From NCBI RefSeq assembly GCF_031286615.1, contig NZ_JAITUA010000008.1: DNA of 64,000 nucleotides; one strand, written 5' to 3'. The translations under genes were made by a program, and so were the position numbers. Shown piece by piece: positions 12,202 through 37,752 of this stretch (positions are counted from its first letter, which is position 1; each line of letters begins with the position of its first letter). The DNA is from Chryseobacterium sp. (GTDB lineage Bacteria > Bacteroidota > Bacteroidia > Flavobacteriales > Weeksellaceae). The notes under the pieces were generated by a model. It had not been told where the DNA came from, searched no databases, and worked only from the letters and a program-made list of their open reading frames with translations.

Positions 12202-12229
12202 TTTCGGTATTTTTTACCGAAACTTTTTT
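12201..12229 (+). terminator. intrinsic terminator after the RNA ligase gene
   Basis: Hairpin GTTTCGGTA-ttttt-TACCGAAAC followed by T6. Confidence 0.7.
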
Positions 12230-12366
12230 GTATATAAACCTAACCATAAATGCTGCGTGAGTTTAAGGACCTGATTTTCATTATGCAGTAAGTTTGTCAT
12301 TCCGTAGGAATCTCAACCGTTAAAAGTGAAAATAGGCTTTCTTTTATGGTTTAAAAAAGAAAAAAT

Positions 12367-13311: not shown

Positions 13312-13367
13312 TTAAAAATATTTATTAAACAAAACTATAGCATTCACAGAATAGTAATGTATGTACT

Positions 13368-13442
13368 TGTCATTCTGACAAAGGAAGAATCTCTTTAAGG
13401 AGAAAGATTCTTCATTCCACTTTGTTTCTTTCAGAATGACAG
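13368..13442. repeat. GTCATTCTGA/GAAGAATCTC palindromic intergenic element
   Basis: Nested dyad ttGTCATTCTGAcaaaGGAAGAATCTct...agAGATTCTTC...TCAGAATGACag. Related partial copies are at about 12290-12325 and 41875-41955. Confidence 0.6.
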
Positions 13443-13476
13443 AGAGAATGTTGTAGTTAAAAAACAATTTAAAAAA

Positions 13477-14040
13477 ATGAAACCCAATATATTTTTTACT
13501 GCTGATCATCATTTTGGTCACGAGAATATTATAAAATTTTCAGAAAGACCTTTTGAATCTCTGGACCATATGAATGAAGAACTCATTAAAAGATGGAATG
13601 AGAAAATTCAACCCGGTGACACGGTCTACCATTTAGGAGATATGAGTCTGGGAAAACCGGATTTTACAAAAGAGATTTTAGACAGATTAAATGGTAATAT
13701 CCATTTGATAAAGGGCAACCACGAAGGCGCAGCTTTAGCTTATCCCAAGCGCTTTGCTTCCATCAGAGATTATCACGAACTGAAAATTGATGAAGCAGAT
13801 AACAGCAACAGAAAACAGAAAATCATTCTTTTCCACTACGCCATGCGTACCTGGAATGGCTCACACCGAGGGGTCTGGCAGTTATACGGACATTCACATG
13901 GAACATTACCGGATGATGAAATGGCACTGAGTTTTGACGTAGGAGTAGACTGCCACAATTTTTATCCGGTTTCCTACGAGGAAGTCAAAGAAATTATGAA
14001 AAGGAAAAAATGGACACCACCATTTGGTCCAAGAAATTAA
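13477..14040 (+). CDS. calcineurin-like metallophosphoesterase
   Basis: 'FFTADHHFGH', 'YHLGDMSLG', 'IKGNHE' and 'GHSHG' are the canonical MPE motifs. Confidence 0.8.
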   Translation: MKPNIFFTADHHFGHENIIKFSERPFESLDHMNEELIKRWNEKIQPGDTVYHLGDMSLGKPDFTKEILDRLNGNIHLIKGNHEGAALAYPKRFASIRDYHELKIDEADNSNRKQKIILFHYAMRTWNGSHRGVWQLYGHSHGTLPDDEMALSFDVGVDCHNFYPVSYEEVKEIMKRKKWTPPFGPRN

Positions 14041-14155
14041 TGATGAGTAATAAGTAATGATTTGATGGAAGGAAAAATGGGAACGATATTTCAATGAGTA
14101 TTCAACAGCTTTCATCATACATTTTACTTTTTTACATCGTACATTTTATAATAAC

Positions 14156-14698
14156 ATGAAAACAACCAATGAGATCATAATTATCGATCTGGAAGCTACA
14201 TGTTGGGAAAACGACAGAATTCCCATCGGGCAGAAAGTCGATATTATAGAAATAGGGATTTGTAAATTAAACTTAACATCAAAAGCAATTTCCCAAAAAC
14301 AAAGCATTTATGTAATTCCTGAAAGATCAGAAATCAACAGATTTTGTACACAACTAACCGGAATTAGTCCTCAACTGATAGAAGAAAAAGGAATCTATTT
14401 TGAAGAAGCCTGTGAAATGATCAGAGATCAATACCGTTCTGCACCGCTTACATGGGCAGGATACGGAAACTTTGATGGAGAGCAGATCATAGAACAGTAC
14501 GACTGGCTTGGTATAAAAAATCCTTTTTCGGAAAACTATATGAATGTGATGCATGAATTCAAAAGACATTTCAGACTGCATAAACAAATAGGGCTTAAAA
14601 GAGCCTTGAGTTATCTGAAGATGGATTTTGAAGGCACTCATCACAGTGGAGCAGACGATGCTTACAATACAGCCAGAATTTTAAGTAAGATTCTGTAA
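14156..14698 (+). CDS. DEDDh 3'-5' exonuclease (ERI-1/KapD-like), copy 1
   Basis: 'IIIDLEATCWE' (Exo I) and 'HSGADDAYNTARIL' (Exo III, H-x4-D). Confidence 0.8.
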   Translation: MKTTNEIIIIDLEATCWENDRIPIGQKVDIIEIGICKLNLTSKAISQKQSIYVIPERSEINRFCTQLTGISPQLIEEKGIYFEEACEMIRDQYRSAPLTWAGYGNFDGEQIIEQYDWLGIKNPFSENYMNVMHEFKRHFRLHKQIGLKRALSYLKMDFEGTHHSGADDAYNTARILSKIL

Positions 14699-14809
14699 AA
14701 TAATTAGGCTGGAAGACTGAAGCTGGAGGCTGGAAGTAAATCAGACGCTGTAAAAACTTCCATCTTCCTGCATCCATCTTCTATCCTTTAACAATTAAAT
14801 TTTAAACAA

Positions 14810-15364
14810 GTGAAAACAACAGAAAATATATTAATCGTAGATCTTGAGGCCACGTGTTGGGAAAACCGACCGCCAAGAGGCCAGGAAAGCGAGATCATCG
14901 AGATCGGTGTATGCATCATGAATGCAAAAACCGGTAAGATCTCCAAAAATGAGGGGATTTTAATAAAACCCCAATATTCAAAAGTAAGTCCGTTTTGTAC
15001 AGAGCTTACTACCCTTACCCAAAATATGCTGGATAATGAAGGAATCATGCTGGATGATGCATTCGATATCCTGAGAGCAGAATATGATTCAGAAGAACTG
15101 ACGTGGGCCAGCTACGGAAACTACGATCTGAATATGCTTCAGAATCAGGCAAGAAGATTCTACACAGATTATCCTATGAGTGATGACCATATTAATGTGA
15201 AAACATTATTTGGAGAAACTCATCCTACCATCAGGAAAAGTGTCGGGATGAACAGAGCTTTGGGTGAATTGGGACTTACACTGGAAGGTACACACCACAG
15301 AGGAGTAGATGATGCCAAAAACATTGCAAAGATTCTACATTGGTGCCTGAAAAAGTCCTTATAA
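14810..15364 (+). CDS. DEDDh 3'-5' exonuclease, copy 2 (tandem paralog)
   Basis: 'LIVDLEATCWE' and 'HRGVDDAKNIAKIL'. Collinear with 14156-14698. GTG start. Confidence 0.8.
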   Translation: MKTTENILIVDLEATCWENRPPRGQESEIIEIGVCIMNAKTGKISKNEGILIKPQYSKVSPFCTELTTLTQNMLDNEGIMLDDAFDILRAEYDSEELTWASYGNYDLNMLQNQARRFYTDYPMSDDHINVKTLFGETHPTIRKSVGMNRALGELGLTLEGTHHRGVDDAKNIAKILHWCLKKSL

Positions 15365-15407
15365 AACCATTAAAATTTATATATTTAGATATCTTGAATA
15401 TTAATAA

Positions 15408-16442
15408 ATGACTGAAAAATATAATATCCTGGAGCACATGAGAATGCGTCCTGGAATGTATGTTGGTTTTCTGAACCATTTTGGCTATAATGAATTAATA
15501 AGCTACTTCATTAAAGATTTTATCAGAGCTGACATCTATGATATTACTTTCACCCTGAAAAAAGATAATAGACTGGTTATGAAATGGACTAGTTATAAAA
15601 AAACGCTTTTTAATACAGAAATCATAAAAAAGATTAATCAGTATCAACAAGAACCATTTTATTTATCATTGGCTGGTATTATTGCACTGACAGAGTATTC
15701 TACGATTGAGATTAATGGTGTACCTATACTACAATCAGAAAAAGGAAACTTTGAAGTTTTGGACAGCATTAATTATATTAATGAAGAAGAGACCTGCAAT
15801 TGGACGATTGATTTCATTCCTGATCAAGATATTTTTAAAGGTTTGATATTGAGTTACCAAATTTTGAATGATTTGTTCAGAAGGTTTTCCTTTTTGGATT
15901 CAAATATGAAAATAAAAAGCATTGATGAATCTGAAGATGAACAACAGATCAATATTTTTCATTATCCAAATGGTTTAGCAGAGATTATAAATTATGAAGT
16001 GGAAAAGAGTTTGCTGTATGATTTCTATTTTTTTACATTGAATTTTCGAAAAAAAACAGAATATTCATATTCAGTAGCATTTGCCTTTGCAGATAATCAG
16101 ATCTTTAAACCTAAAATCAAGATATATGCAAATTATCAAGAAACCTTTCTGGGAGGATCTTTACTGGATGGAATTATGCAAGGATTCAAGATGTCTTTGA
16201 AAGAAGAAGCTGCAAAGAGAAATATGAAATTAAATATAAGTACAACAAGACTTAAAAAATACCTGTTGCTTTATGCTTCTGTACAAGGAGAACTTACATT
16301 TTTGGGTTCAACAAGATGGAAGCTTGGAACTCTGAAAGTGCAGACAGAAATTAAGAACTTTATGTATGAAGAGCTAAAACTTTATTTTGCCAATAATGAA
16401 GATAAGGTAATTCATATCCTACAAATTTTACGGGATGAATAG
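15408..16442 (+). CDS. GyrB/ParE N-terminal-like protein with a degenerate GHKL ATP site
   Basis: 'LEHMRMRPGMYVG' matches the GyrB N-terminal signature. The expected E..DN..DE N-box reads 'YFIKDFIRAD'. At 344 aa it has no Toprim or tail. Confidence 0.5.
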   Translation: MTEKYNILEHMRMRPGMYVGFLNHFGYNELISYFIKDFIRADIYDITFTLKKDNRLVMKWTSYKKTLFNTEIIKKINQYQQEPFYLSLAGIIALTEYSTIEINGVPILQSEKGNFEVLDSINYINEEETCNWTIDFIPDQDIFKGLILSYQILNDLFRRFSFLDSNMKIKSIDESEDEQQINIFHYPNGLAEIINYEVEKSLLYDFYFFTLNFRKKTEYSYSVAFAFADNQIFKPKIKIYANYQETFLGGSLLDGIMQGFKMSLKEEAAKRNMKLNISTTRLKKYLLLYASVQGELTFLGSTRWKLGTLKVQTEIKNFMYEELKLYFANNEDKVIHILQILRDE

Positions 16443-18638: not shown

Positions 18639-21335
18639 ATGAAAGAAAGACTTTATGAGATCCTTAATGAGGAAAAGATACATGAGATTATCCCCTTTCT
18701 AAAAGAGCTTAGTAATGAAGAAAGGAAAACACTGGTGCCATCTATAAAGAAAATGGACAGGGAGATCAGTAAAATTGTAATGACTAAAAACTCCTACCAT
18801 ACGGCAGGATCTGTGAATCAGCATTCCATTATTGATATTGCTTCATTTGTCTGCATGGACAAAAAGAATTTCGGTAAAAATTACTGGAGTCTTTTCCGTA
18901 ACGCCGAACAGACCGAACAGATTCTGGAATGGGGCTGCCCGGAATGGTTTTCAGACTTTATCAATGAATCTGTAGAAGCTGAATTTACAGCATTTAACTA
19001 TAAAGATATTTTAGGATGGACAGAAAAGGGCTATATACAACCGAAACCGGAACTGCTGGGACATCATCTGAGCAATTATCCGGCTGAACTGGACCGCCAT
19101 CCCGAAACTCTTAATACACACTTTTGGTATTTATGTGAATATCCTTCCAAATCTTTACCCTTCCGTAAAGAATGGTTTCCAATTGTTCAGAAGCTGATCG
19201 CAGAAAAAAAGATTGAAAGGAAAAGATTTTTGAAAGAATGCCTTCTGGCTTCCAATAGAAATTTTAATAAAAATGTCACAGGTTGGTTTATGGATGCATT
19301 TACTTCATTAAAGCCAACCGAGGAAGAGCTGTCTGAGCTGCAGGATGAATTGCTTGCGGGGCTGGCTTCCTCACAGTCAAAAGCTGTAAATACCATATTA
19401 TCACATTTGAAAAAAATAGTGGGAGTTCCTGATTTTAAAAATGATGAATTTTCCCATTATCTTCCGAATCTGTTGAGCTCGGAAGTAAAAACAGTGGTTG
19501 TATCCAGTCTGGTACTGACTGAAAAAATATTCCAGAGAAAGAAAATAGATCCCGAAATGTTGGGAATGGCTTTAAGTACGGCATTTGTCAGCAAAGATGA
19601 TGGCATACAGTCAAAAGCTGCAAAGATCATTCTTAAATATATTCCGGCTTCAGAAAATATGATAGAGGCACTTTCCCATTATTCAGACAATATACTGACC
19701 AATGTACGTCCTCTTCTTGTAAAATATATTGAAGAAACACAGCCTGAACTGGTGGCAATCGCTTCAGAAAAATTATCTCTGACTACAGAAGAAAATGCAG
19801 TGAAAGTACTTCAGAACTTTGAAGATCTGATGTTTTATCTTCCTTTAGCGATGGATGATCCGTACAGCCATCATTGTGATATTGCTTTGGCTGGATTTAT
19901 CCGCTTTGCCGGAGATGTAAATACGGAATCCGTGAAATTAATAGAACCGGTATTTTTGAAAGCATGTAAAACAATTGCGAAATGGGAAGTTCCCTATCTG
20001 AATGTTTTACTGTGTAATGCTATTATTAATTATGGTTTGGATTTACTGGAAAAATACTCGGTTCAGCTTAAAAACCTGGAAAAAATTTACCATAAGACCA
20101 AAGAAGAGGAAGCAGCAAGAGAATCTTACTCCAATTATCAGAAAAAATTGGGACCGATTGAAAATGTCGGAGCAGATTGTCCTGCAAGAATGGCGTTTAA
20201 GGAGCTGGCTATCTATGCTTATGAAAAAATAAAATCAGGTGATAAGATCCCGTTATTGTTCACGGTTACCCATGCTCCATGTTGGATTTCCCCAGTAACG
20301 TTGGTAGAAAGATTGGAAAGCTATCAGAATAATAATGTTGAACCCCATCATCTGGATATTCAGCTGGCATTGCAGCGTTGTGCTTTAGACAATACTTCAG
20401 AAGCGATCATTGAAGTTGAAAAAAGATTAAAAGGAGAATATAAAGAACTGTTACTTTTCTTCTTTGGCAAAAAAGCTAAGCCGGAAGGAAAATTTGAACA
20501 TCCTTCATGGTGGATGACTGCAGGAATTACCCGTTCGCCGGAAACCGTATTTGAAGAATTCAGCGGTTTCGGGTATGATGATATTCCTTTAGAATTCTTT
20601 TCCGGAGCTTACAAATGGAAGACCATCGATAATAAGAAAAACTCATATTATCCTGTAGAGCTGAAGATTGTGATTCCTAAATATCATCTTGCAAAAAGGG
20701 AAGCACCTTTATTCGTGGAATATTTCGTTGCCGAACAGAAAGAGCTTACCGAAATTCCTGCATTGATGCTATGTTTTCCGAATACTCCGGCAAATGCTTT
20801 GGCAAAAGTAATCAAGCATTGTCTTTTCTTTTCAGGAATAGCCGAAGTCTATGAAAGAAGTCTGGTTTTGAATACAGCGAATGCACTTTATCAGATCAAA
20901 AACCCATTAGACGAAATCGGGTATCTGTTCTTAGGAACTATTTTCCTGGACAGCGATAAAACCATTCGTGGTACAGCAGCTGAAATATGGCTGGAGCATG
21001 TTTCTTCTCAAACGATGGATAATGCGTGGTTAGGAAGGGTGATCGGTCTGCATGAAAAACTGGAATGGGCACCCGTAAAAAGATTAACAGATCTTATGCA
21101 GCATCATATGCTGAATGTCAGTAAGAATCATAATATTGCCCTGGAAGAATTGATTTCCAATATATTGCTTCAAATGGAAACACCGGTTACCAATCTGAAA
21201 AAGATTCTGGAAATCTACCATGAAGTATTGGCTTTGAATCACTCAGAAGCTCATAATGAAATAATAGGGAAATTAAATAGCTGGAAAGAAAATTCGAGTC
21301 TGAAAAAGATCTGTGGCCTTCTTCTGAAGAAATAG
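18639..21335 (+). CDS. large alpha-helical repeat protein (DUF6493-like?)
   Basis: 898 aa, leucine-rich and predicted helical throughout. The stop lies 2 nt before the SWIM gene start. The family name is my recollection only. Confidence 0.5.
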   Translation: MKERLYEILNEEKIHEIIPFLKELSNEERKTLVPSIKKMDREISKIVMTKNSYHTAGSVNQHSIIDIASFVCMDKKNFGKNYWSLFRNAEQTEQILEWGCPEWFSDFINESVEAEFTAFNYKDILGWTEKGYIQPKPELLGHHLSNYPAELDRHPETLNTHFWYLCEYPSKSLPFRKEWFPIVQKLIAEKKIERKRFLKECLLASNRNFNKNVTGWFMDAFTSLKPTEEELSELQDELLAGLASSQSKAVNTILSHLKKIVGVPDFKNDEFSHYLPNLLSSEVKTVVVSSLVLTEKIFQRKKIDPEMLGMALSTAFVSKDDGIQSKAAKIILKYIPASENMIEALSHYSDNILTNVRPLLVKYIEETQPELVAIASEKLSLTTEENAVKVLQNFEDLMFYLPLAMDDPYSHHCDIALAGFIRFAGDVNTESVKLIEPVFLKACKTIAKWEVPYLNVLLCNAIINYGLDLLEKYSVQLKNLEKIYHKTKEEEAARESYSNYQKKLGPIENVGADCPARMAFKELAIYAYEKIKSGDKIPLLFTVTHAPCWISPVTLVERLESYQNNNVEPHHLDIQLALQRCALDNTSEAIIEVEKRLKGEYKELLLFFFGKKAKPEGKFEHPSWWMTAGITRSPETVFEEFSGFGYDDIPLEFFSGAYKWKTIDNKKNSYYPVELKIVIPKYHLAKREAPLFVEYFVAEQKELTEIPALMLCFPNTPANALAKVIKHCLFFSGIAEVYERSLVLNTANALYQIKNPLDEIGYLFLGTIFLDSDKTIRGTAAEIWLEHVSSQTMDNAWLGRVIGLHEKLEWAPVKRLTDLMQHHMLNVSKNHNIALEELISNILLQMETPVTNLKKILEIYHEVLALNHSEAHNEIIGKLNSWKENSSLKKICGLLLKK

Positions 21336-21337
21336 AT

Positions 21338-22681
21338 ATGGAAGGTACGCTTATTTACAACTATTCAGGAGCATCCTCTTTAGTAAGGAGAGGTGCACTT
21401 GAAGAATTGTTTCTCGCTAAATACAGTGAGATACATAAAAATACTGATGCACCATGTTTTTTCTGGGGAAACGTTGGGCAGCCTTTTATTCTGGCACGTT
21501 GTCTGATTACACTGTCCAATATTGTAAAATCAAGTTTTAACCTGTCTCCGTTTCAAATGGCGCTTCTTAAAGATCCGATCGTAACAGCCGGAAATAATAG
21601 ATTACGCTTTGAAGGTTTTTCTCACTGCGCTGGAGTTTACGCAAGAGTTGACGTACTGCCTGAAGGTCTGGAAGGAGAATTTCTTGAAAACGGAACTACA
21701 AATGTAGACTTCAATCAACCAATGATAACTGCGCTGGGAAGCATTCGCCCAAATGAAAAAATCATGCTTTCAGTGGGGAAAAAAGAAGTAGGGCTTTATA
21801 AAGAAGAAGAGAAAATACTAGAAAGAAAAGTTCCTTTACCTGCAAAATGGATTAAAGGATTGGGAACGGTTCAGGTATATTTATCGGAATCCGAAAAACG
21901 CTATACTTTTAATAAAATTCAGACCCAGCAATTATTCCGGGGGATGCCGAAAGGAGTGGTAAAGTCTGATTATTATTTGATTGTGAGAGGAAATAAACCC
22001 GTCTTTTCTCCGGTAAAATCCATGGATGCTGTTTGTATAGGCGGGCTTCACAGGCTTCGTCTTTTAGAACCTCTGCTTCCTTATATTGATTATATGCAGG
22101 TTTTTTCACATTCTAATATGCAGTCTGCAACATGTCAGCTTTATATGGGACCTATCAGATTTAGTTTTTCTTTGTCAAGAGAGTGTTGGAGGGGGTTCTC
22201 AGGAGAAGGAGCAGTCTTGGAAAACCTGATTTCTGAAATTTCTGATGAGTGGATCGATGCTTTGGATAAGTATGCTTATGCCAATCAATCCTTTAATCCA
22301 GACCTGCTTGCTCTGGAAGAAAATCTGAGTTTCAGCAAAACTGATACTATTACAGGAAGGCTTGCAGCAATGGGATTATTGGGGTATGATCTTGATGATC
22401 AAGAATTTTTCTACCGTAGGCTTCCTTTTAAATTAAGTCGTATTATCGGACTCAATCCCCGTATAAAGAATGCCAATAAGTTAATAGAAGACGGAAAAGT
22501 AGAAATTTTAAATAACAATAAAGAAAGAACAGAAGCCAGAGTAGAGGGAACTGGTGTGCACCATACGGTAATCATTGAAGAAGAAAAAGAGCGCTGTACC
22601 TGCGAGTGGTTCAGTAAATATCAGGGTGAAAGAGGTCCCTGTAAACATGTGCTGGCAGTAAAGAAACTGGTAAACAGTTAA
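21338..22681 (+). CDS. SWIM zinc-finger protein
   Basis: C-terminal 'CTCEWFSKYQGERGPCKHVLAV' gives CxC-x(n)-CxH. Confidence 0.8.
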   Translation: MEGTLIYNYSGASSLVRRGALEELFLAKYSEIHKNTDAPCFFWGNVGQPFILARCLITLSNIVKSSFNLSPFQMALLKDPIVTAGNNRLRFEGFSHCAGVYARVDVLPEGLEGEFLENGTTNVDFNQPMITALGSIRPNEKIMLSVGKKEVGLYKEEEKILERKVPLPAKWIKGLGTVQVYLSESEKRYTFNKIQTQQLFRGMPKGVVKSDYYLIVRGNKPVFSPVKSMDAVCIGGLHRLRLLEPLLPYIDYMQVFSHSNMQSATCQLYMGPIRFSFSLSRECWRGFSGEGAVLENLISEISDEWIDALDKYAYANQSFNPDLLALEENLSFSKTDTITGRLAAMGLLGYDLDDQEFFYRRLPFKLSRIIGLNPRIKNANKLIEDGKVEILNNNKERTEARVEGTGVHHTVIIEEEKERCTCEWFSKYQGERGPCKHVLAVKKLVNS

Positions 22682-23577: not shown

Positions 23578-23613
23578 TACGCAAAAAGGTTGCGCAATAC
23601 TGTTTTTACTTTG
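23578..23613 (+). promoter_or_regulatory. P(rsr): 19-mer TACGCAAAAAGGTTGCGCA, N9, then the -7-like box TTACTTTG
   Basis: The same 19-mer/N9/8-mer architecture occurs at 26791 and 27011. It lies about 60 nt upstream of the ATG at 23674. Confidence 0.55.
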
Positions 23614-23673
23614 CATCAGAAATCAGAGAGGAAGTATCAATTCTTCCCAATGTTTAACAAAAAAACAGTAACC

Positions 23674-25191
23674 ATGAAATTTAATTTTTTAAAAAAAGAA
23701 ACTAAAGTAGTATTGAACTACGAAGGTGCAAAAGCATATGCGATGACACCTGCAGAAGAATTGTATAGTGCTGTTGTTACAACAGGACTGTCAGATGCCA
23801 ACTATGAAAAAGGAAATGACAGATTGGAAAGAATCCAGTCTCTGATCAAAAAAAATGATCCGGAATTTGTGGCAAAACTGGCAGTGTATGCAAGAAAATA
23901 TATGTATTTACGTTCCATTCCATTGGTGTTGACAACTGAACTGGCAAAACAGACTTCCGGTACGGATCTGGTAAGCAAAACAGTGGACGGTGTCGTTCAG
24001 AGAGCTGATGAAATCACAGAATTGCTGGCATATTACCAACTTGCCAATAAAAGAACAGATACTAAAAAACTGAATAAACTGTCAAAGCAGATTCAAAAAG
24101 GTCTGGTGAGATCATTCAATAAATTTGATGAATACCAGTTTGCAAAATATAACAGAAAAGCGGAAGTAACCTTGAAAGACGCATTATTCCTGGTTCACCC
24201 GAAAGCCAAAGATGAAAATCAGCAAGCTGTTTTCAACAAAATTGCCAATAATACACTGGAAACTCCATACACATGGGAAGTAGAGTTTTCCGTTTTGGGC
24301 CAGACGAAATTTGCTAATGATGCAGAAAGAAAGTTAGCTTTCAAAAACAAATGGGAAGAACTGATCTTCAGCAACAAATTGGGTTATATGGCAACCATGA
24401 GGAACCTGAGGAATATCCTTGAAGCGGGTGTATCATCTGATGCAATGAATAAAGTATGCAGATATCTTTCCGATGAAAGAGCGGTATACAATTCAAAGCA
24501 GCTTCCATTCCGATTTCTGGCGGCTTATAGGGAATTAAAAACTATAGATTCTCCTTATTTGTCTTCAGTATTGGAAGCATTGGAAAATGCTGTGGTGGTA
24601 AGTGCAAAAAATATCAAAGGCTTTGGTTTTGATACTTCGGTAGTGATTGCTGCGGATGTATCAGGTTCTATGCAGAAACCAGTTTCCAATAAAAGTAAAA
24701 TCTTGCTGTATGATATAGGTTTGTTGATGTCCATGATTCTTCAGTCACAGTGTAAAAATGTGGTGACAGGTATCTTTGGTGACCGTTGGCTGAGAGTTCC
24801 AATGCCTAAAAATGGTATCTTAAGAAATGTAGATGCCTTCTACAAACGCGAAGGTGAAGTAGGATATTCTACTAATGGCTACTTGGTCATCGAAGATCTG
24901 ATCAAAAGAGGTGAAAAAGTGGACAAAGTAATGCTATTCACTGATACTCAGTTGTGGGACAGCACTGGAAGCAGAAACTCCTTTGAAGACCTGTGGAACA
25001 GGTACAAAATGATCGCTCCCAATGCAAAGCTGTATATCTTTGACCTGGCAGGTTATGGTACACAGCCGCTTGATATCAGAAAAAATGATGTACATCTTAT
25101 AGCCGGTTGGTCAGACAAAATTTTCGATGTACTGAACGCTTTGGAAGACAAAAAATCAGCCGTAGAAATGATTCAAAAAGTAGTGCTGTAA
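23674..25191 (+). CDS. rsr: Ro60-related TROVE plus vWA protein (Rsr)
   Basis: Start trimmed to the ATG at 23674. 'LNYEGAKAY', 'EFVAKLAVYAR..MYLRS', 'LAYYQLAN', 'LPFRFLAAY' and the C-terminal vWA 'VVIAADVSGSM' are all present. Confidence 0.85.
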   Translation: MKFNFLKKETKVVLNYEGAKAYAMTPAEELYSAVVTTGLSDANYEKGNDRLERIQSLIKKNDPEFVAKLAVYARKYMYLRSIPLVLTTELAKQTSGTDLVSKTVDGVVQRADEITELLAYYQLANKRTDTKKLNKLSKQIQKGLVRSFNKFDEYQFAKYNRKAEVTLKDALFLVHPKAKDENQQAVFNKIANNTLETPYTWEVEFSVLGQTKFANDAERKLAFKNKWEELIFSNKLGYMATMRNLRNILEAGVSSDAMNKVCRYLSDERAVYNSKQLPFRFLAAYRELKTIDSPYLSSVLEALENAVVVSAKNIKGFGFDTSVVIAADVSGSMQKPVSNKSKILLYDIGLLMSMILQSQCKNVVTGIFGDRWLRVPMPKNGILRNVDAFYKREGEVGYSTNGYLVIEDLIKRGEKVDKVMLFTDTQLWDSTGSRNSFEDLWNRYKMIAPNAKLYIFDLAGYGTQPLDIRKNDVHLIAGWSDKIFDVLNALEDKKSAVEMIQKVVL

Positions 25192-25355
25192 AAGGCACTG
25201 CTTTTAAAAATAACAACTGACATTGATCAAAACAATCAATATATTTAGGAGCTAATCCTGCTTTCCACTATATCTTTTTCGCCAAAGCTTTTCTCAAGCC
25301 ATTCAGAAAAAGGATGCCGTTGCAATCAGGGCTATTGAATCAAACTATATATACT

Positions 25356-26018
25356 ATGAAACTCATTAATACCATTGAAATAAGCCCGTTACGATATTCC
25401 AGGGAAGAAGTCGAATTACCGGAAATTTCCGATTATCCAGACCACGAAGAATGGTTTGCAAAATGGGAAGAAGCCGTTTCTCAACTGAATTTTAATTTTG
25501 AGGTCATTGAGAAAGGATCTTATTTGACAGATATCGAAACAATAGATGACGAAAATCTGAAGATGATTGTAGAAGCCAAAATGGAAGACACAGAACCAGA
25601 CGAATCTGAAGAAGATATATATGTCATGGCTTTTGACGGAGGAATTGTATTAAAAATAGAAGATAAAATATTGATACAACCTAACTGTTGTGGTGATATA
25701 AGCAATATTGAAGATTGGAAAAATATTTTTAATACACCATCTTCGGAATGGAAAGACCTTTGGATAGGACATCCATGGGTATTTTACAAAAGGGAAAATG
25801 GGAAAGTCTGCTTCTCAGAATATACAGAATCCAATATTGAAGATGTTGAAAATATAAAAATTGTTGCAGAAGTAGAAGAATCCGAACTTAAAGCAGAGTT
25901 AGAAAAAGTAATCATGCAACAAATCAATTTACAAAACAGAATAGTATCTGTTCTAAAAACGCTGAATTGTAAATATCCAGAGAAAATTTCAAAGCAATTG
26001 GCTGGAATTAAAGAATGA
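25356..26018 (+). CDS. acidic hypothetical protein
   Basis: Start trimmed to the ATG at 25356, because the upstream codons fall in a repeat-like sequence. No motif recognised. Confidence 0.5.
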   Translation: MKLINTIEISPLRYSREEVELPEISDYPDHEEWFAKWEEAVSQLNFNFEVIEKGSYLTDIETIDDENLKMIVEAKMEDTEPDESEEDIYVMAFDGGIVLKIEDKILIQPNCCGDISNIEDWKNIFNTPSSEWKDLWIGHPWVFYKRENGKVCFSEYTESNIEDVENIKIVAEVEESELKAELEKVIMQQINLQNRIVSVLKTLNCKYPEKISKQLAGIKE

Positions 26019-26254: not shown

Positions 26255-26782
26255 ATGGAAAATTTATTTTACAGAATTGAACAGGATCTTAAAGAAGGCA
26301 GAAAGAAAAAAGCATGCGACAGACTAAGAAATATGATTAATCAGTTTCCCAATGACCTTTCCTTAAGAAAAAAATTAGGACAAATTTATTTTGAAGCAGG
26401 ATTTCTTGACGAAGCAGGTAAATTCTGGATTCTGTCTAAACCAGAGAATAATGAAATGGAAGCTGCAGTAGAGATTTACAGAAAGTCTTTAAGCAATTCA
26501 GGAAATGCAATTTTAAATGATATTGTTTTCAGAGGAGATAAAGATTTGCTTGATGAACATGCAAAAAAAGTAATCTTGGAACTTGAGCACGATAGCTTTA
26601 GAGTAACCGGACAAATTCCAACTTTTAAAGCGAAAGCAAGAGAAAAAGGACGTTATTCGGAAGACAAGACAAATTTTCTAGGCCAAATTGGATTTTTTTT
26701 ATTCATTGGATTTATTATTTTACTTCCGGTTTTAGGGATTTTTAAATTGTTTGAATTGATCTCATCATTATTTTCTCAATAA
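26255..26782 (+). CDS. hypothetical protein with a helical-repeat N-terminus and C-terminal TM anchor
   Basis: 175 aa. C-terminal 'FLGQIGFFLFIGFIILLPVLGIFKLF'. Confidence 0.5.
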   Translation: MENLFYRIEQDLKEGRKKKACDRLRNMINQFPNDLSLRKKLGQIYFEAGFLDEAGKFWILSKPENNEMEAAVEIYRKSLSNSGNAILNDIVFRGDKDLLDEHAKKVILELEHDSFRVTGQIPTFKAKAREKGRYSEDKTNFLGQIGFFLFIGFIILLPVLGIFKLFELISSLFSQ

Positions 26783-26790
26783 AAATAAAC

Positions 26791-26826
26791 TACGTAAAAA
26801 GATTGCGTACATATAATATAATTTTA
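26791..26826 (+). promoter_or_regulatory. 19-mer TACGTAAAAAGATTGCGTA, N9, then TAATTTTA
   Basis: Second copy of the rsr-type promoter architecture. It lies about 15 nt upstream of the first Y-like RNA 5' module. Confidence 0.5.
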
Positions 26827-26840
26827 CAGTGTTAATAATA

Positions 26841-26990
26841 CTGGTGCCGTTAGAAAGGCCTACTTCGATTCAAAACTGACAGAGTCTTTCAACAGATTGC
26901 CCGGTAGCTATAACCAATGTCGTTCATAAGAGTTCCATCATCAAACTTTTAATTTGACTAGAATCAAAAACTCTTATACATTGTTACTTG
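26841..26990 (+). ncRNA. Y-RNA-like element a (divergent, no T-arm)
   Basis: 5' module 'GGTGCCGTtAGAaAGGCCTACTTCG' is nearly identical to element d. There is an internal 9-bp stem ATAAGAGTT/AACTCTTAT and the 3' end reads 'TTGTTACTTGG' plus a T-run. It lacks GGTTCGA. Confidence 0.3.
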
Positions 26991-27010
26991 GTTTTTAATA
27001 AAAAAACAAC

Positions 27011-27046
27011 TGCGTAAATTGAATGCGTACCAGCAATATAAATTTG
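27011..27046 (+). promoter_or_regulatory. 19-mer TGCGTAAATTGAATGCGTA, N9, then TAAATTTG
   Basis: Third copy of the architecture, with a perfect TAnnTTTG box. It lies upstream of Y-like RNAs b, c and d. Confidence 0.55.
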
Positions 27047-27077
27047 TGAAAAGAATAAAGCTAATAATTATAAAAAG

Positions 27078-27201
27078 CAAGTGTCGTAAAACAGAGTTAC
27101 TTCTTTAGGGACGGTAATACAGGTTCGAATCCTGTTCTGCAGCAGCAGATAGTAGAAATGGTAACACCCCGTATTGGTCTCTGTTTGATCTAATTACCTT
27201 G
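27078..27201 (+). ncRNA. Y-RNA-like element b
   Basis: Terminal helix CAAG...CTTG plus AAACAGAG/CTCTGTTT flanks an internal loop (5' TGTCGT, 3' GATCTAATTAC). T-arm ACAGG-TTCGAAT-CCTGT is followed by hairpin TCTGC-agca-GCAGA. Confidence 0.6.
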
Positions 27202-27211
27202 TTTAAATTAT

Positions 27212-27353
27212 ATCAAGTGTCGTTTTAGAATCATACTTCGAGATTGAATAAACATTGGGTCGCAGGTTCGAATCCTGCCTTTTCCCTCGAAAAGGAGAGG
27301 TAGCTCAGCAGGTAGAGCAAATGCACGGAAGATTCTGAGAATTTTACCTTGAT
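27212..27353 (+). ncRNA. Y-RNA-like element c with a circularly permuted tRNA-like module (YrlA-like)
   Basis: Terminal helix ATCAAG/CTTGAT plus TTTTAGAATC/GATTCTGAGA. T-arm GCAGG-TTCGAAT-CCTGC. Closed acceptor stem CTTTTCC-loop-GGAGAGG. D-arm TA-GCTC-AGCAGGTA-GAGC. Confidence 0.7.
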
Positions 27354-27357: not shown

Positions 27358-27460
27358 AAAAGAGTGCCGTAGAGAAGGCCTACTTCGGTTTAATTTGGTT
27401 CGACTCCAGAAGGTCATGGAAATGATCTTGTACAAGTCTTTTCGAATCTTGCCTCTTTTT
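27358..27460 (+). ncRNA. Y-RNA-like element d
   Basis: 5' module 'AGTGCCGTAGAGAAGGCCTACTTCG'. T-arm TTTGG-TTCGACT-CCAGA. Acceptor-like hairpin AGGTCAT-ggaa-ATGATCT. Terminal AAAAGAG/CTCTTTT plus a T-run. Confidence 0.5.
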
Positions 27461-27478: not shown

Positions 27479-28318
27479 ATGAATATACCAAGTAATCTGA
27501 CTGAATTTTTATACTGGGTCAAAGAACGTACAGAAAAACTGTGGTCTGTGGATGATGAAAATTGTCCTAAAGGATTTTACGGTGCCCAATGGCAGGGACT
27601 TTCTGAAGAACAGATCAATCAGATTGAGAGGAAATATGACATTAGCTTTACATCTGAACATAGAGAATTTCTAAAAATTCTTCATGCCATCGACAAAAAA
27701 GTAATTGTTGAATATGAAGATGAAGGAGAAATGGTTACAGAAGAATGTACTTTCTTTTATAATTGGCTTGAAAATGAAGAGGAAATAAGAAAAATAATGA
27801 ATACACCATATGATTGGATGCTGGATGATATTGATTCAGTGAATAAAGTTTGGTTAAAATCATGGGGAATAAAGCCTGCATCCTTGGAAAAGAGAAAAGA
27901 AATTTTTGATGAATGGTTTTCACATGTTTCAACACTTTTACCACTCATGGGAACTCGTTATATAATAAGTGATGTAGATCTTGTTTGGAGACCTGTGCTT
28001 TCTATAAGAGGTTCAGATATTGTCATTATGGGATGGGATTTCAGAACTTATTTATTAAATGAGCTAGGAGGTTATCTTGATATTCATATTGACGTTTTTG
28101 ATGAAGAAGATCAGATGTTCTACCCTGAACTTATTGATGAAGTACAACAAATATTTAATGAAAACTATAAATATGATGAAACTAAAGACATTCCTTATTT
28201 GAAAGAAATGATTCTTTACTGGTCTTCCGGATGGAGTAGTTTCGGTTTAAGTTATCACCCGGAAAATGCCAGAGTTCATCCTATTGTTAAAACATATATT
28301 GCTGAAGAAGAAAAATAA
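27479..28318 (+). CDS. SMI1/KNR4 (SUKH-1)-like protein
   Basis: Start trimmed to the ATG at 27479, because the track start at 27395 overlaps Y-like RNA d. 'LSEEQINQIERKYDISFTSEHREFLKIL' is the typical SUKH-1 N-terminal signature. Confidence 0.55.
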   Translation: MNIPSNLTEFLYWVKERTEKLWSVDDENCPKGFYGAQWQGLSEEQINQIERKYDISFTSEHREFLKILHAIDKKVIVEYEDEGEMVTEECTFFYNWLENEEEIRKIMNTPYDWMLDDIDSVNKVWLKSWGIKPASLEKRKEIFDEWFSHVSTLLPLMGTRYIISDVDLVWRPVLSIRGSDIVIMGWDFRTYLLNELGGYLDIHIDVFDEEDQMFYPELIDEVQQIFNENYKYDETKDIPYLKEMILYWSSGWSSFGLSYHPENARVHPIVKTYIAEEEK

Positions 28319-28323
28319 AACAA

Positions 28324-28472
28324 ACAAGTGCCGTAGAAAAATGTTACTTCGCTCATCACGACGGGGTCACGGGTTCGAGTCCCGTCTCTTCCACAGCAAA
28401 AAAACACGATGTATATAGGAAGAGTAGCTCAGTTGGTTAGAGCACGACTGCATTATTCGGCTGTTGCCTTGT
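28324..28472 (+). ncRNA. Y-RNA-like element e with a circularly permuted tRNA-like module (YrlA-like)
   Basis: Terminal ACAAG..GCCG / CGGC..CTTGT. T-arm ACGGG-TTCGAGT-CCCGT. Perfect 7-bp closed acceptor stem CTCTTCC-(25-nt loop)-GGAAGAG. D-arm TA-GCTC-AGTTGGTTA-GAGC. Confidence 0.7.
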
Positions 28473-28483
28473 TTTCATAAAAT

Positions 28484-28600
28484 CAGAAGCCGGAAGTGGG
28501 AAGTTGAAAGATATCTTTGTATTATAATTTTCTATAAAGTCAGATAGATTTTTCGGACTTTACCCTCTTTCTTTTTCCCACTTCCAGCTTCTTTATAGTA
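28484..28600. repeat. long GGAAGTGGGAAG-type hairpin
   Basis: AGAAGCCGGAAGTGGGAAG ... CTTCCCACTTCCAGCTTCT inverted repeat. Related GGAAGCTGGAGG words occur at 14705-14775. Confidence 0.5.
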
Positions 28601-28607
28601 CTATTAT

Positions 28608-28736
28608 GAAGTGTCGTTAGGAAAAAATTCATCGCACCATAATGACGGGAGGAATAGCGAAGCCGGTTATTCCGGCAAGGTTATCCGGTTCGACTCCGGC
28701 AAACGAAAGCCCGGTTTTTTCCTTATTATTACCTTT
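28608..28736 (+). ncRNA. Y-RNA-like element f (tRNA-like parts in non-permuted order)
   Basis: 5' 'GAAGTGTCGTTAGGAAAAAA' pairs with 3' 'TTTTTTCCTTATTATTACCTT'. Internal hairpins GGAATA-..-TATTCC and GCCGG-ttatt-CCGGC, plus T-arm CCGG-TTCGACT-CCGG. Confidence 0.5.
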
Positions 28737-28737
28737 A

Positions 28738-28775
28738 AAAAAGTGCCGGTAAACTATTTACCGGCACTTTTCATT
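28738..28775. terminator. bidirectional terminator
   Basis: AAAAGTGCCGGTAAA-cta-TTTACCGGCACTTTT. The right arm overlaps the 3' end of the minus-strand HTH gene. Confidence 0.7.
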
Positions 28776-35202: not shown

Positions 35203-36027
35203 ATGAATAAAAGATACAGCTTACACCACATTCATTCGGCGGATGAGTTTACCTTCTCACCTGCGGAATACAGCTATTTCAAATATGGCGATAAGTCGTA
35301 TGCTGAAAAATTTGCAAAAGAATTATTCAACGGATTTATTTCCGGAAATGAAGCACTTTTAGATACTGATAAAGAGATTGTAGTACTTCCAAGCCCTTAT
35401 ATGGCAATTCCTACAGCTTCTAATTTTTTATGCTTTTACTTTAAGAAACATCTGGATTTTTATCTGTTTCAAAAAGGAAAAAAGTCAAGTATTTTATCTA
35501 AAATCAATCGTAACCATACCTATATCACAGATTACGGGAATCTCAATTTTGAAGACCGTAAAAATCTGATCGCAAATGATACTTATTATATCGATAAAGA
35601 TTTTTTGAGAGGAAAACTTTGTATTTTTATAGACGATATAAAAATCACGGGAAGTCATGAATATACAGTCAACAGAATTCTGGATGAATACAGTGTGGAG
35701 GCAGACTTTATGTTCCTGTATTATGCTGAACTGATGAATTTTGACCTTGATCCCAAGATTGAAAACTTTTTCAACTATTATGCAGTAAAAAATGTAATAC
35801 ATGTTGCAGAAGTGATGAATAAAGAGAGTTTTGAATTCAATACAAGGATTGTAAAATATATTTTAGGGCTGGAATCAAGTAATTTTGATTATCTTACGTC
35901 TAAAGTAAAAAGAGAACAGATGGACCTGCTTTTGGAGCTGGCCATCAGCAACAATTATCATTTAATAAAAGAATACGAAAATAACATCAATACTTTAACA
36001 CAAACGGAATTATATTATGGCTATTAA
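35203..36027 (+). CDS. phosphoribosyltransferase-fold protein
   Basis: PRPP loop 'LCIFIDDIKITGSHE'. Overlaps the terD start by 11 nt. Confidence 0.65.
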   Translation: MNKRYSLHHIHSADEFTFSPAEYSYFKYGDKSYAEKFAKELFNGFISGNEALLDTDKEIVVLPSPYMAIPTASNFLCFYFKKHLDFYLFQKGKKSSILSKINRNHTYITDYGNLNFEDRKNLIANDTYYIDKDFLRGKLCIFIDDIKITGSHEYTVNRILDEYSVEADFMFLYYAELMNFDLDPKIENFFNYYAVKNVIHVAEVMNKESFEFNTRIVKYILGLESSNFDYLTSKVKREQMDLLLELAISNNYHLIKEYENNINTLTQTELYYGY

Positions 36028-36574
36028 CTTACAAAAAGGACAAAGAGAAAACATTAACGCACCTAAATTTACTGTAGGTTTAGGATGGGATATCAATAAT
36101 ACTTCTACGGGAACAGGATTTGACCTTGATGCCTCTTTGTTTTTGCTTGGAGACGACAAAAAATTAGTTTCAGATAATCACTTTATTTTCTATAATAACC
36201 TTGAATCTCCGGACAAATCGGTGATCCACACAGGAGATAACCTTACAGGAGAAGGAGCTGGTGATGATGAGCAGATCAAAATTGATCTGACAAAAATTGA
36301 TGATGCGATCAAAGAAATTACAGTAGTAGTAACTATTCACGAAGCAGAATCAAGAAAGCAAAACTTTGGACAGGTAAGAAATTCTTTCATCAGAATTTTC
36401 AATACAGATACCAATGAAGAAATCTTAAAATATGAATTAGATGAAGATTTCTCAATCGAAACCGCTGTAGAATTCGGAAGAATCTACAACAGAAACGGAG
36501 AATGGAAATTTGAGGCTGTAGGAGCTGGACAGAGAGACGGCCTTGACAAATTTGTATCAATTTATCAGAAGTAA
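36017..36574 (+). CDS. terD: TerD-family stress protein
   Basis: 'MAINLQKGQ..', 'GFDLDAS.FLL', 'GDNLTGEGAGDDEQI' and 'EWKFEAVG' are canonical TerD motifs. Confidence 0.9.
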   Translation: MAINLQKGQRENINAPKFTVGLGWDINNTSTGTGFDLDASLFLLGDDKKLVSDNHFIFYNNLESPDKSVIHTGDNLTGEGAGDDEQIKIDLTKIDDAIKEITVVVTIHEAESRKQNFGQVRNSFIRIFNTDTNEEILKYELDEDFSIETAVEFGRIYNRNGEWKFEAVGAGQRDGLDKFVSIYQK

Positions 36575-36576
36575 TC

Positions 36577-37752
36577 ATGGACAATCAGGAAAATCAACCC
36601 ATAGATCCGCTAGGGTCAATAGAACCTCTTAAAACTTTTGAACCTACTCCAATGGTTCCCCCAACTCCGGCTCAGCCTGTTCAAAATGCAGCACCGGCAG
36701 TTCTTGTAGACAGAGAGGGAAATGTAAACCTGACTCAATTGCAGTCAGAAGACCGTCAGAAATATGAAGTTCTTGCGAACTCTATTGACGAAACAAATCC
36801 GGGGTCTATTGTGAATTTCGGGGCGGAACTTCAGAAGACATTAACTAACCAGAGTGACAGTTTCTTAGGAAACGTAAGAAGATCAAACTCAGGAGAAGTA
36901 GGAGGGCTTATCAATGATCTTTTGGTAGAGCTTAATTATGTAGATGTGGAAGAACTTAACGGAAATAAAGTGAAAAGCTTCCTGAGCAAATTACCATTCA
37001 TGAAGAAGGTAATGACTCAGGTAGAAAACTTATTTGCAAAATACGATAAGATCATCAACAATATTGAGCAGATCTCTTATAAAGTAAATGCGGGAATCAT
37101 TACTTCTACAAAAGATAATGCTGTACTTCAGACTATCTTTGAAAGTAATGTGAATTCTATCAAGCAGATTGAAGATCTTGTGATTGCAGGAAACCTGAGA
37201 ATGGAAAGAGCTGCTGTTGAACTTGCTCAAATGGAAACTGCTCCTCAGAATTTCCAGGACTATCAGATTGCAGATAAGAGAGATTTCATTGCAAGATTAG
37301 ACAGAAGAATGGCTGATCTTAAAGTGGTGCGTGTGATTATGATGCAGTCACTTCCTCAGATCAGACTGGTACAGAATAACAATGTTTCTATTGCTGAAAA
37401 GGCACAGACGATTCTTACCACTACACTTCCGGTTTGGAAAAACCAGCTTTCACTTGCAGTGGCAATGTACAGACAGCAGCAGAATATTGAAATTCAGCAA
37501 AAGGTATCTTCCACTACAGAAGAGATCTTAAGAAAGAATGCAGAGCGTCTTGGACAAAATTCTGTGAATGTTGCCAGAGCTAATGAGCAGACTATCGTAT
37601 CTGTAGAAACATTGAGAGAAACAACATCAATGCTTATCAATACATTGAATGAAGTGAAACAAATCCAGAAACAGGGAGCAGATAACAGAAGAAAACTGGA
37701 TCAGGATCTTCAGACATTGGAGCATGAACTTAAAGCTAATGTCAGAGGTTAA
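36577..37752 (+). CDS. telA: TelA/KlaA toxic-anion-resistance family protein
   Basis: 391 aa, helical, with 'GSIVNFGAELQK', 'YDKIINNIEQI' and 'DNAVLQ' matching TelA as I recall it. Starts 3 nt after the terD stop. Confidence 0.75.
   Translation: MDNQENQPIDPLGSIEPLKTFEPTPMVPPTPAQPVQNAAPAVLVDREGNVNLTQLQSEDRQKYEVLANSIDETNPGSIVNFGAELQKTLTNQSDSFLGNVRRSNSGEVGGLINDLLVELNYVDVEELNGNKVKSFLSKLPFMKKVMTQVENLFAKYDKIINNIEQISYKVNAGIITSTKDNAVLQTIFESNVNSIKQIEDLVIAGNLRMERAAVELAQMETAPQNFQDYQIADKRDFIARLDRRMADLKVVRVIMMQSLPQIRLVQNNNVSIAEKAQTILTTTLPVWKNQLSLAVAMYRQQQNIEIQQKVSSTTEEILRKNAERLGQNSVNVARANEQTIVSVETLRETTSMLINTLNEVKQIQKQGADNRRKLDQDLQTLEHELKANVRG

Follow-up and report, generated by a model that had tools for sequence, protein, structure and literature searches.

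Two elements of a 64,000-nucleotide stretch of Chryseobacterium sp. DNA (NCBI RefSeq assembly GCF_031286615.1, contig NZ_JAITUA010000008.1; the whole stretch is hereafter called the window), element c (27212-27353) and element e (28323-28473), both on the plus strand, are very probably genes for bacterial Y RNAs of the YrlA class, and two of the seven Y-RNA-like genes (a1, a2, b, c, d, e and f) found at the locus of rsr, the gene of the Ro60 ortholog Rsr. They are divergent Bacteroidota members of the YrlA type already described, and were classed so because they have the structure and the genomic context by which the type is defined, score below its Rfam threshold and carry a 5' motif that differs by one base from the published one. 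Element c was recognized by its sequence, Rfam comparison and covariation, and element e by Rfam comparison, a covariance model of the c type and covariation. The fold of both elements is supported by covariation in every helix.

The ends of the c RNA pair in a terminal stem (S1; 27212-27220 with 27346-27353) in which AUCAAG (27212-27217) faces CUUGAU (27348-27353) and, past a bulged U at 27218, GU (27219-27220) faces AC (27346-27347). The 5' motif GUGUCGU is at 27217-27223, and further inward are a second stem of 9 base pairs (bp) (S2; 27224-27232 with 27331-27339), the segment UACUUCG (27234-27240) and a 4-bp analog of the anticodon stem (CAUU, 27253-27256, with AAUG, 27320-27323). This analog encloses, from 5' to 3', the variable-loop analog GGGUC (27257-27261), the T-arm GCAGG-UUCGAAU-CCUGC (27262-27278), a closed acceptor-like hairpin of 7 bp (27279-27300), a UA linker equivalent to positions 8-9 of transfer RNA (tRNA) (27301-27302) and the D-arm GCTC-AGCAGGTA-GAGC (27303-27318; in RNA letters GCUC-AGCAGGUA-GAGC), with A27319 in the place of tRNA nucleotide 26. 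The acceptor strands CUUUUCC (27279-27285, 3' strand) and GGAGAGG (27294-27300, 5' strand) form 5 Watson-Crick and 2 G-U pairs around a loop of 8 nucleotides (nt) (CTCGAAAA, 27286-27293), and G15 (27308) and C48 (27261) form the Levitt pair. The minimum free energy (MFE) fold of the single c sequence contained the same arms. A slipped hairpin, CCUUUUC/GAAAAGG, was rejected for c, as orthologs with CUUCUCC break it and preserve the tRNA register.

Element e repeats this arrangement, with S1 formed by 28323-28331 and 28466-28473, the T-arm ACGGG-TTCGAGT-CCCGT at 28369-28385, an acceptor hairpin at 28386-28424, UA at 28425-28426 and the D-arm GCTC-AGTTGGTTA-GAGC at 28427-28443. Its acceptor stem is a perfect 7-bp helix (CTCTTCC, 28386-28392, with GGAAGAG, 28418-28424) closed by a 25-nt loop. 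Among e-type copies the acceptor 3' strand was followed by A-C (A73-C74) in 66 of 67 sequences and by ACCA in 9, and the acceptor loop was 11-28 nt long; loops of this length could accommodate a leader role, which is a hint from the sequence and not evidence. All sequence strings that the preliminary description quoted for c and e were present at the coordinates it gave, and the pairing of the RNA's own ends where an anticodon stem would be was borne out by S1, as read in the sequence, and by covariation across relatives. As a separate observation, the tRNA-Phe gene at 7752-7825 has an acceptor 5' strand, GGAAGAG, identical to that of e (28418-28424), and is also similar to b-type elements (27120-27136) in its T-arm (ACAGG-UUCAAUU-CCUGU) and D-stem (GUGU); this likeness may be a trace of tRNA descent or a coincidence.

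YrlA (RF02553) was the best match of both elements among all 4227 Rfam families searched in E-value mode, with 36.9 bits (E 6.3e-6) for e and 33.9 bits (E 4.6e-5) for c, and the alignments of both to RF02553 ran through T-arm, acceptor and D-arm in that order. ARAGORN found 16 tRNAs in the window, all between 5728 and 8034, none at 26.8-28.8 kb, and no transfer-messenger RNA (tmRNA), and the Rfam tRNA model (RF00005) had no match at 26.8-28.8 kb even with E up to 10; c and e are therefore not ordinary tRNA genes. The permuted-tmRNA model (RF04321) scored 21.7 bits, against a gathering threshold of 47, and covered only the T-arm and acceptor part of e.

Related loci were collected by a scan of reference genomes with the Ro60 protein, which returned 80 loci, almost all labelled Chryseobacterium, with 81-97% protein identity; BLAST of the elements against these loci retrieved distinct relatives with 67-99% identity, 80 of the c type and 67 of the e type. 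Alignments contained 81 c-type, 68 e-type, 26 b-type, 48 d-type and 31 f-type sequences, and a further one was made of divergent sequences. Pairing was compared with slid controls, in which the 3' partners were moved by 1-3 columns. Without any supplied structure, RNAalifold on the MAFFT alignment of c-type sequences recovered S1 and S2 together with the T-arm, acceptor hairpin and D-arm, with 11 of 26 pairs compensatory. The full proposed structure had 94.4% standard pairs in the c-type alignment (38-48% in slid controls) and 19 pairs changed on both sides (5-9 in slid controls), and none of 500 shuffles reached any of five measures. In the e-type alignment 94.2% of pairs were standard, with slid controls at 38-52% for the c- and e-type alignments together; the acceptor and T stems were paired in every e-type sequence, with C-G replaced by U-A in 16 and A-U by G-C in 18.

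Individual helices were supported to different extents within the genus. The acceptor helix of c was 92.6% paired in c-type sequences, with double changes in 3 pairs there and in all 7 pairs in the divergent alignment. Three pairs of the 4-bp anticodon-stem analog of c covaried, and the T-stem had a switch from G-C to A-U in 6 c-type sequences. The D-stem of c was practically invariant in Chryseobacterium but covaried in distant relatives. The Levitt 15:48 pair was G:C in 76, A:U in 4 and G:U in 1 of the c-type sequences, and A:U in all 26 b-type sequences. T-loop nucleotides U54, U55, C56 and A58 were invariant in the 81 c-type sequences, and the UA linker, A14, R15, G18, G19, U54, U55, C56, A58 and Y48 were invariant or at least 90% conserved in both the c- and the e-type alignments. 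The T-arm preceded the D-arm in 152 of the 153 elements with both arms in the 80 loci, which had 2-3 full YrlA-type copies each. A position downstream of rsr on its strand, as in the window, was seen in 77 of the 80 loci, and the 5' motif was found 481 times on the rsr strand versus 15 times on the opposite one, with 3-10 occurrences per locus.

The c-type covariance model found e in the window with 95.2 bits (E 2e-19); with default filters it missed b and d, and it gave false matches at tRNA-tRNA junctions of the window's tRNA array. An exact-pattern DNA scan of viral and metagenome collections returned mostly single matches with neither T-arm nor Rsr gene, which were taken as chance, and about 25 outside loci with a T-arm beside the motif, about 20 of which encode an adjoining Rsr homolog with 39-84% identity. 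The covariance model had 68 matches in 27 outside loci. In the model-fitted alignment of divergent sequences 91.4% of pairs were standard (40-51% in slid controls), and 35 of 37 pairs had double changes. An independent MAFFT alignment of 20 divergent sequences folded with RNAalifold gave S1, S2, the T-arm, a 7-bp acceptor hairpin and the D-arm, with 25 of 31 pairs compensatory and with GUGYCGUAGA and UUACUUCG as conserved unpaired segments. Folding with homologs, proposed in the preliminary description as a check, thus favoured the reported helices both by RNAalifold and by pair counts, and favoured no incompatible fold. Likewise, unguided RNAalifold, the pair counts and the rsr context agreed with the topology it had ascribed to YrlA, that is, a permuted tRNA-like module with a closed acceptor and a stem made of the RNA ends.

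The rsr gene (23590-25191, plus strand) encodes a Ro60 ortholog of 533 aa with a TROVE HEAT-repeat ring and a Ro60 von Willebrand factor A (vWA) domain (Pfam TROVE, E 1.3e-28; vWA_Ro60, E 1.2e-6). The closest solved structure was that of Ro60 of Thermus phage phiLo (9KOP/9L5Y; E 1.3e-27 over residues 43-522), a protein that binds two phage Y-like RNAs. Rsr is presumed to be the protein partner of the array RNAs. The seven Y-like RNAs are of three architectures and lie on the same strand, 1.6-3.5 kb downstream of rsr; c starts 2.0 kb and e 3.1 kb downstream of the rsr end (25191), both on the plus strand. Chen et al. (PMC4201824) defined YrlA RNAs as encoded on the strand of rsr and no more than 4 kb from it.

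In all seven elements the motif reads GYCGU with A or U as the next base (GUCGUUUUAG in c and GCCGUAGA in both d and e, for example), and motifs of this type were conserved in the 20 divergent sequences. The terminal stem varied among paralogs (CAAG/CUUG, AGAG/CUCU, GAAG/CUUU, CUGG/CCGG and CCAA/UUGG), with the bulged U and GYCGU fixed. The signature AGTGYCGT-N10-TACTTC occurred four times in the window (b, c, d and e) versus none in 100 shuffles; in RNA letters it is AGUGYCGU-N10-UACUUC, and the longer UACUUCG was invariant in the 81 c-type sequences. The sequence at the YUAY motif was AUAC in c (its A just before UACUUCG), UUAC in b and e, and CUAC in a1 and d. Consensus features of YrlA include GNCGAAN0-1G near the 5' end, a putative Rsr contact, and YUAY before the variable loop (PMC4201824). 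Binding and stabilization by Rsr and modification by TruB and Dus enzymes are further marks of the class.

Elements c and e resemble YrlA (RF02553; Salmonella Typhimurium YrlA, crystal structure 6CU1; Mycobacterium smegmatis YrlA) in lying less than 4 kb from rsr on the same strand, in their paired ends with a G-N-C-G-type motif near the 5' end, in the YUAY motif and in the internal order of variable loop, T-arm, closed acceptor stem-loop, UA and D-arm. Their D-arm (UAGCUCA..GGUAGAGC) and T-loop (GGUUCGAnnCC) are almost identical to the YrlA consensus, the covarying 15:48 Levitt pair makes the same switch as reported by Chen et al. (PMC4201824), and the 7-bp acceptor stem of both is like that of M. 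smegmatis YrlA. They differ from YrlA in their scores (34-37 versus 69 bits), in GYCGU(A/U) instead of GNCGAA, in the extended invariant UACUUCG placed a fixed 10 nt from AGUGYCGU, in the two stems (S1 and S2) between the ends and the tRNA core, in their Bacteroidota host and in the presence of 2-3 full copies within arrays of 3-10 Y-like RNAs. With the permuted tRNA genes of Cyanidioschyzon merolae and with permuted two-piece tmRNA they share the rotated gene order, in which the T-arm and the 3' strand of the acceptor come before its 5' strand; unlike those, c and e have neither an anticodon loop nor a tag reading frame, and their ends carry a Ro-binding-type module.

Several results weigh against the identification of c and e as YrlA genes. 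Both elements scored under the gathering threshold of RF02553 (69 bits), gathering-level YrlA matches were found neither in the window nor in the 10 loci scanned with Rfam, and the relatives tested scored 36-49 bits (best 49.2), none reaching 69. The 5' motif is GYCGU(A/U) and not the published GNCGAA, from which it is one position apart. Rsr itself is divergent, with 21 bits against a cut-off of 900 for the NCBIfam Rsr equivalog. Thermodynamic z-scores versus shuffles were unremarkable (-1.6 for c, -0.5 for e, -0.3 to -1.6 overall), the MFE fold of e alone did not form the D-arm, and the anticodon-stem analog of e had an A-A mismatch that was invariant in the e-type alignment. Neither a scan for sigma-70 promoters and terminators nor a count of TAnnTTTG, the -7 box of Bacteroidetes, exceeded chance, with only the TAnnTTTG site at 27039 suggestive. 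The sub-threshold E-values for RF02553 (1e-4 to 5e-8) were nevertheless significant, with YrlA as the top family. The curated Rfam threshold misses the YrlA RNAs of this genus and of its distant relatives, which are thus likely to be unannotated there. The literature search, which did not cover the species table of Chen et al., found no paper tying Y RNAs to Chryseobacterium or Flavobacteria.

Tandem tRNAs in decay would leave non-functional remnants with the order of parts seen in c and e, the upstream tRNA contributing its T-arm and acceptor 3' half and the downstream one its acceptor 5' half and D-arm. Chen et al. (PMC4201824) warn of this artefact, YrlA has been suggested to derive from a tRNA dimer (10.1101/312249), and true tRNA-tRNA junctions in the 16-tRNA array scored 33-34 bits with the c-type model. 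The acceptor strands of c and e, however, pair with compensatory changes, as those of neighbouring tRNAs would not, and the flanks form covarying S1 and S2 stems with a conserved Ro-type motif; this covariation of the acceptor stem and of S1 and S2 largely refutes the remnant origin. About 77 genomes have kept the elements, without exception on the strand of rsr, and neither ARAGORN nor the Rfam tRNA model detected a tRNA at them; we regard decayed remnants as extremely improbable. Just as improbable are circularly permuted tRNA genes like those of C. merolae, with transcripts circularized and re-opened to give working tRNAs. Such genes have the same order and ends that pair at the anticodon stem (10.1101/312249), and the 7-bp acceptor stems, the A73-C74 conserved in e-type copies and an Rnl2 ligase gene 12 kb away would suit them. 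No 7-nt anticodon loop can be formed in c or e, however; the 4-bp analog opens instead into internal loops of 15-25 nt and then into two stems with a Ro-binding-type motif, and the paralogs b, d and f are without parts that a tRNA needs.

A role of c and e as Rsr-independent tRNA-shaped decoys or sensors, for example for tRNA-targeting toxins or for modifying or repair enzymes, within an island of tRNA and ligase genes is the least improbable of the alternatives, and still improbable. The locus adjoins the 16-tRNA array and genes for ATP-grasp, cREC, DinB, Rnl2, MBL, phosphoesterase and RNase T proteins, the synteny with repair genes recurs in 16-33 of the 80 loci, and YrlA-like RNAs lie beside or inside tRNA arrays in outside loci L113, L222, L239 and L259. 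Every copy, on the other hand, keeps the terminal stem, the bulge and GYCGU, which have no part in tRNA mimicry; the stem-only a1 and a2 share this terminal module and have no tRNA part; and in the absence of an anticodon loop the target of an anticodon nuclease would not be mimicked. Linkage to rsr is also tighter than linkage to the repair genes: the presence of Rsr in all 80 reference loci follows from the design of the scan, but Rsr is beside about 20 of the 25 independently found metagenomic matches. Very improbable, finally, is a cis-acting role of c and e as leaders, attenuators, terminators or integration sites of the DUF6584 gene and of the ORF (open reading frame) at 27479-28318. The elements do flank both ORFs, tRNA-like sequences are frequent integration targets, and no more than 18 of the 80 loci have an ORF between d and e. 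Many loci without this ORF nevertheless have d and e abutting and unchanged (for example, L002 and L013), each element is a closed structural unit with a terminal stem of its own, and the protein families of the window include no integrase or recombinase at the junctions.

If c and e are YrlA-class Y RNAs, their terminal module, consisting of the paired ends, the bulged U, a G-Y pair and single-stranded GYCGU(A/U), would be the counterpart of the bulged helix and GNCGAA that bind Ro60 or Rsr in other Y RNAs, and by family resemblance would bind Rsr. The rotated tRNA-like module runs from the 5' strand of the anticodon-stem analog through a 5-nt variable loop ending in Y48, the T-arm, a 7-bp acceptor stem closed by its loop, U8-A9, the D-arm and A26 to the 3' strand of the anticodon-stem analog. 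The tRNA elbow nucleotides (U54, U55, C56, A58, G18, G19, A14 and the 15:48 pair) were all present in c and e. By extension from the published family, this L-shaped tRNA mimic would serve as an effector-binding or gating module, and might tether an exoribonuclease such as PNPase, or another enzyme that binds the tRNA elbow, to Rsr for RNA quality control under stress.

The conserved length of 7 bp of the acceptor stem in c and e predicts processing by RNase P. Among the YrlAs of the published set, that of M. smegmatis is alone in having a 7-bp acceptor stem, and it is cleaved by RNase P, after which CCA is added; most other YrlAs are thought to be poor RNase P substrates (PMC4201824; 10.1101/312249). 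By analogy with M. smegmatis YrlA, c and e are likely RNase P substrates, and opening of their acceptor loop by RNase P would permit CCA addition. A more far-reaching proposal, which is possible but which we hold to be unlikely, is that Bacteroidota YrlAs, with their conserved 7-bp acceptor stem, the A73-C74 of e-type copies and a long acceptor loop as a possible RNase P leader, are processed two-piece tRNA mimics, and that the array is co-transcribed or co-regulated with tRNA arrays and the Rnl2, cREC and RNase T module as a tRNA-damage response island. If this were so, one Rsr would work with interchangeable adaptors drawn from 3-10 diversified Y RNAs, and RNase P opening with CCA completion would extend beyond M. 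smegmatis, the sole case seen so far.

The elements described here are carried genus-wide, with distant Bacteroidota-like relatives in metagenomes and two viral contigs, and a single locus holds natural variants of one design: 2-3 full mimics, T-arm-only and stem-only RNAs. With this comparative series and the 7-bp acceptor stems, recruitment through the elbow and tRNA-like processing become testable in a culturable organism.

The other five elements are on the plus strand as well. What the preliminary description had taken as a single element a was resolved into two short stem-only elements, so that the array has seven members and not six. Element a1 (26840-26905), identified from its sequence, MFE and RNAalifold folds and the c-type model, has no tRNA-like module; it has the stem ACUGG-U-GC/GC-CCGGU, which is closed at 26899-26905 in both the MFE and the RNAalifold folds, a GCCGU motif and CUACUUCG, and matched the c-type model with 35 bits (E 1e-5) with the tRNA core deleted. 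Element a2 (26914-26991), identified from its sequence and a long MFE hairpin, has CCAA-U-GU/AC-UUGG, a GUCGU motif and then a U-run; with a weak match of 9.6 bits to the c-type model, it is the least certain member of the array.

Element b (27075-27204) is YrlA-like and has the rotated order of c and e, with the T-arm ACAGG-UUCGAAU-CCUGU and a 5-bp closed acceptor-like hairpin (UCUGC/GCAGA). In the b-type alignment 94.6% of pairs were standard versus 40-49% in slid controls, and 21 pairs had double changes. Element d (27359-27458) is a short Y-like RNA with the S1 stem AAAGAG-U-GC/GC-CUCUUU, an 8-bp S2, a T-arm of 3-4 bp (UUGG-UUCGACU-CCAG) and one more hairpin; its alignment was 96.2% paired versus 40-63% when slid, with double changes in 13 pairs. 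Both elements had been described as having degenerate D-arms. This understates the case for d, which has no D-arm at all, and does not hold for the b family, whose D-stem (GUGU/ACAC) covaries, with 75% pairing and switches from U-A to C-G; only the b copy of the window is weakened (GUAG...ACAC), with 2 of 4 pairs lost.

Element f (28607-28737) has nested stems S1, S2 (9 bp) and S3 and, inside these, a two-part hairpin (AUAGC/GUUAU around GCCGG-UUAUU-CCGGC) followed by the T-arm CCGG-UUCGACU-CCGG. The f-type alignment was 94.5% paired versus 38-55% in slid controls, with double changes in 25 pairs. The non-permuted order of parts noted earlier for f stands, as a Yrn1-like order supported by covariation. 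An alternative pairing in f, GGAAUA/UAUUCC, was discarded, orthologs breaking it and preserving the reported helices. A hairpin with a U-run, like an intrinsic terminator, closes the array (28741-28773, plus strand); it was conserved after f, with double changes in 8 of 11 pairs. Between e and f there is a long imperfect inverted repeat, GAAGCCGGAAGUGGGAA ... UUCCCACUUCCAGCUUC (28476-28600, plus strand), which was kept in about 27 loci and could be another small RNA or a repeat element.

These elements also have counterparts among known Y RNAs. The T-arm and hairpin of d, without D-arm, are like the T-arm-only M. smegmatis YrlB and Deinococcus radiodurans RNAs a and b, and the stem-only a1 and a2 are like the hairpin-only S. 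Typhimurium YrlB and D. radiodurans Yrn2; d, a1 and a2 have no detectable sequence homology to those RNAs, and the likeness is one of architecture only. Element f is like D. radiodurans Yrn1 in having the T-arm 3' of an anticodon-arm-like hairpin (5-bp stem, 5-nt loop) in non-permuted order (PMC4201824). It differs from Yrn1 in having no D-loop-like segment, in its two-part hairpin (AUAGC/GYUAU plus GCCGG/CCGGC) and in a terminal module of the Chryseobacterium GUGYCGU type instead of a metazoan-like helix, the comparison being again of architecture and not of sequence. Full tRNA-like, T-arm-only and hairpin-only Y RNAs occur side by side at rsr loci of Salmonella, Mycobacterium and Deinococcus (PMC4201824), which matches the structural heterogeneity that the preliminary description had attributed to the family.

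The array would probably be transcribed as one or two units, starting upstream of a1 and of b and ending at the terminator after f. An upstream motif, ACGTAAAAAGATTGCGTAC (26792-26810, plus strand), precedes the a1-a2 unit, and a second copy, GCGTAAATTGAATGCGTAC (27012-27030, plus strand), lies 8 nt before the suggestive Bacteroidetes-type -7 box, TAAATTTG (27039-27046). The motif, RCGTAAAWAGAWTGCGTA(C), had only these two copies in the window (26792 and 27012). Of the 80 related loci, 51 carried RCGTAAAWAGAWTGCGTA, with 68 copies on the rsr strand versus 2 on the opposite strand; most copies preceded a Y-like element of the a or b type by about 52 or 70-79 nt. From its sequence and placement, RCGTAAAWAGAWTGCGTA is a candidate operator or promoter element of the array.

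Protein-coding genes are interleaved with the Y-like elements. A DUF6584 gene is at 26255-26782, and a 279-aa ORF (27479-28318, plus strand) lies between d and e. Neither this ORF nor that at 25314-26018 had a match in Pfam or NCBIfam; by eye, the N-terminal part of the former resembles SMI1/KNR4 (SUKH) immunity proteins. A Flavo-1 RNA motif (RF01705, 59.9 bits) was found at 25250-25337 on the minus strand, straight after the rsr stop and opposite to it. It is placed likewise in L020, L040 and L048, and two near-threshold copies are in the Y RNA array of the metagenomic locus L306; Flavo-1 may be a recurrent companion of rsr and Y RNA loci.

The tRNA array (5728-8034) is followed by a run of genes to 16442, all on the plus strand. 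The run encodes a RimK-like ATP-grasp protein, an R2K ATP-grasp protein, a cREC receiver domain, DinB and a T4 Rnl2-type RNA ligase (TIGR02307, 206 bits; encoded 12 kb from the elements), and then an MBL-fold protein, a calcineurin-like phosphoesterase, two RNase T-like exonucleases and a GyrB-like protein. To judge by these gene products, the region from 5728 to 16442 looks like an RNA or tRNA repair island, and 16-33 of the 80 loci had parts of the repair module no more than 6 kb upstream of rsr. Between the island and rsr, genes for a DUF6493/DUF7824/DUF7825 protein (898 aa) and a SWIM zinc-finger protein (447 aa) occupy 18639-22681 (plus strand). This pair was present in only 32-34 of 80 loci, and has the look of an insertion between repair island and rsr, which would otherwise form one contiguous unit.

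Outside the reference genomes, YrlA-like RNAs were found inside tRNA gene clusters or directly against tRNA genes (L259, 1-5492; L239, 1597-2561; L113, 217-433; L222, 5445-5824). In L259, three YrlA-like elements are set among about 45 tRNAs that span 5.4 kb, and in L113, an IMG/VR contig, the order is YrlA-like RNA, tRNA, Rsr. Adjacency of this kind points to transcription together with the tRNAs and maturation by RNase P and RNase Z. Ro60, Y RNA and RNA repair have been linked in published work, and Deinococcus has a polycistronic Yrn2-tRNA-Yrn1 transcript (PMC4201824). The layout of the window fits both, and the array probably functions jointly with the tRNA array and the Rnl2 repair genes. 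Conflict- or stress-type genes flank the region on both sides: genes for bpX1 and bpX3 proteins of the MoxR-vWA-beta-propeller ternary conflict system are at the left end of the window (74-3716, plus strand), and a pair of genes for a ComF-like PRTase and TelA is at 35203-37752 (plus strand).

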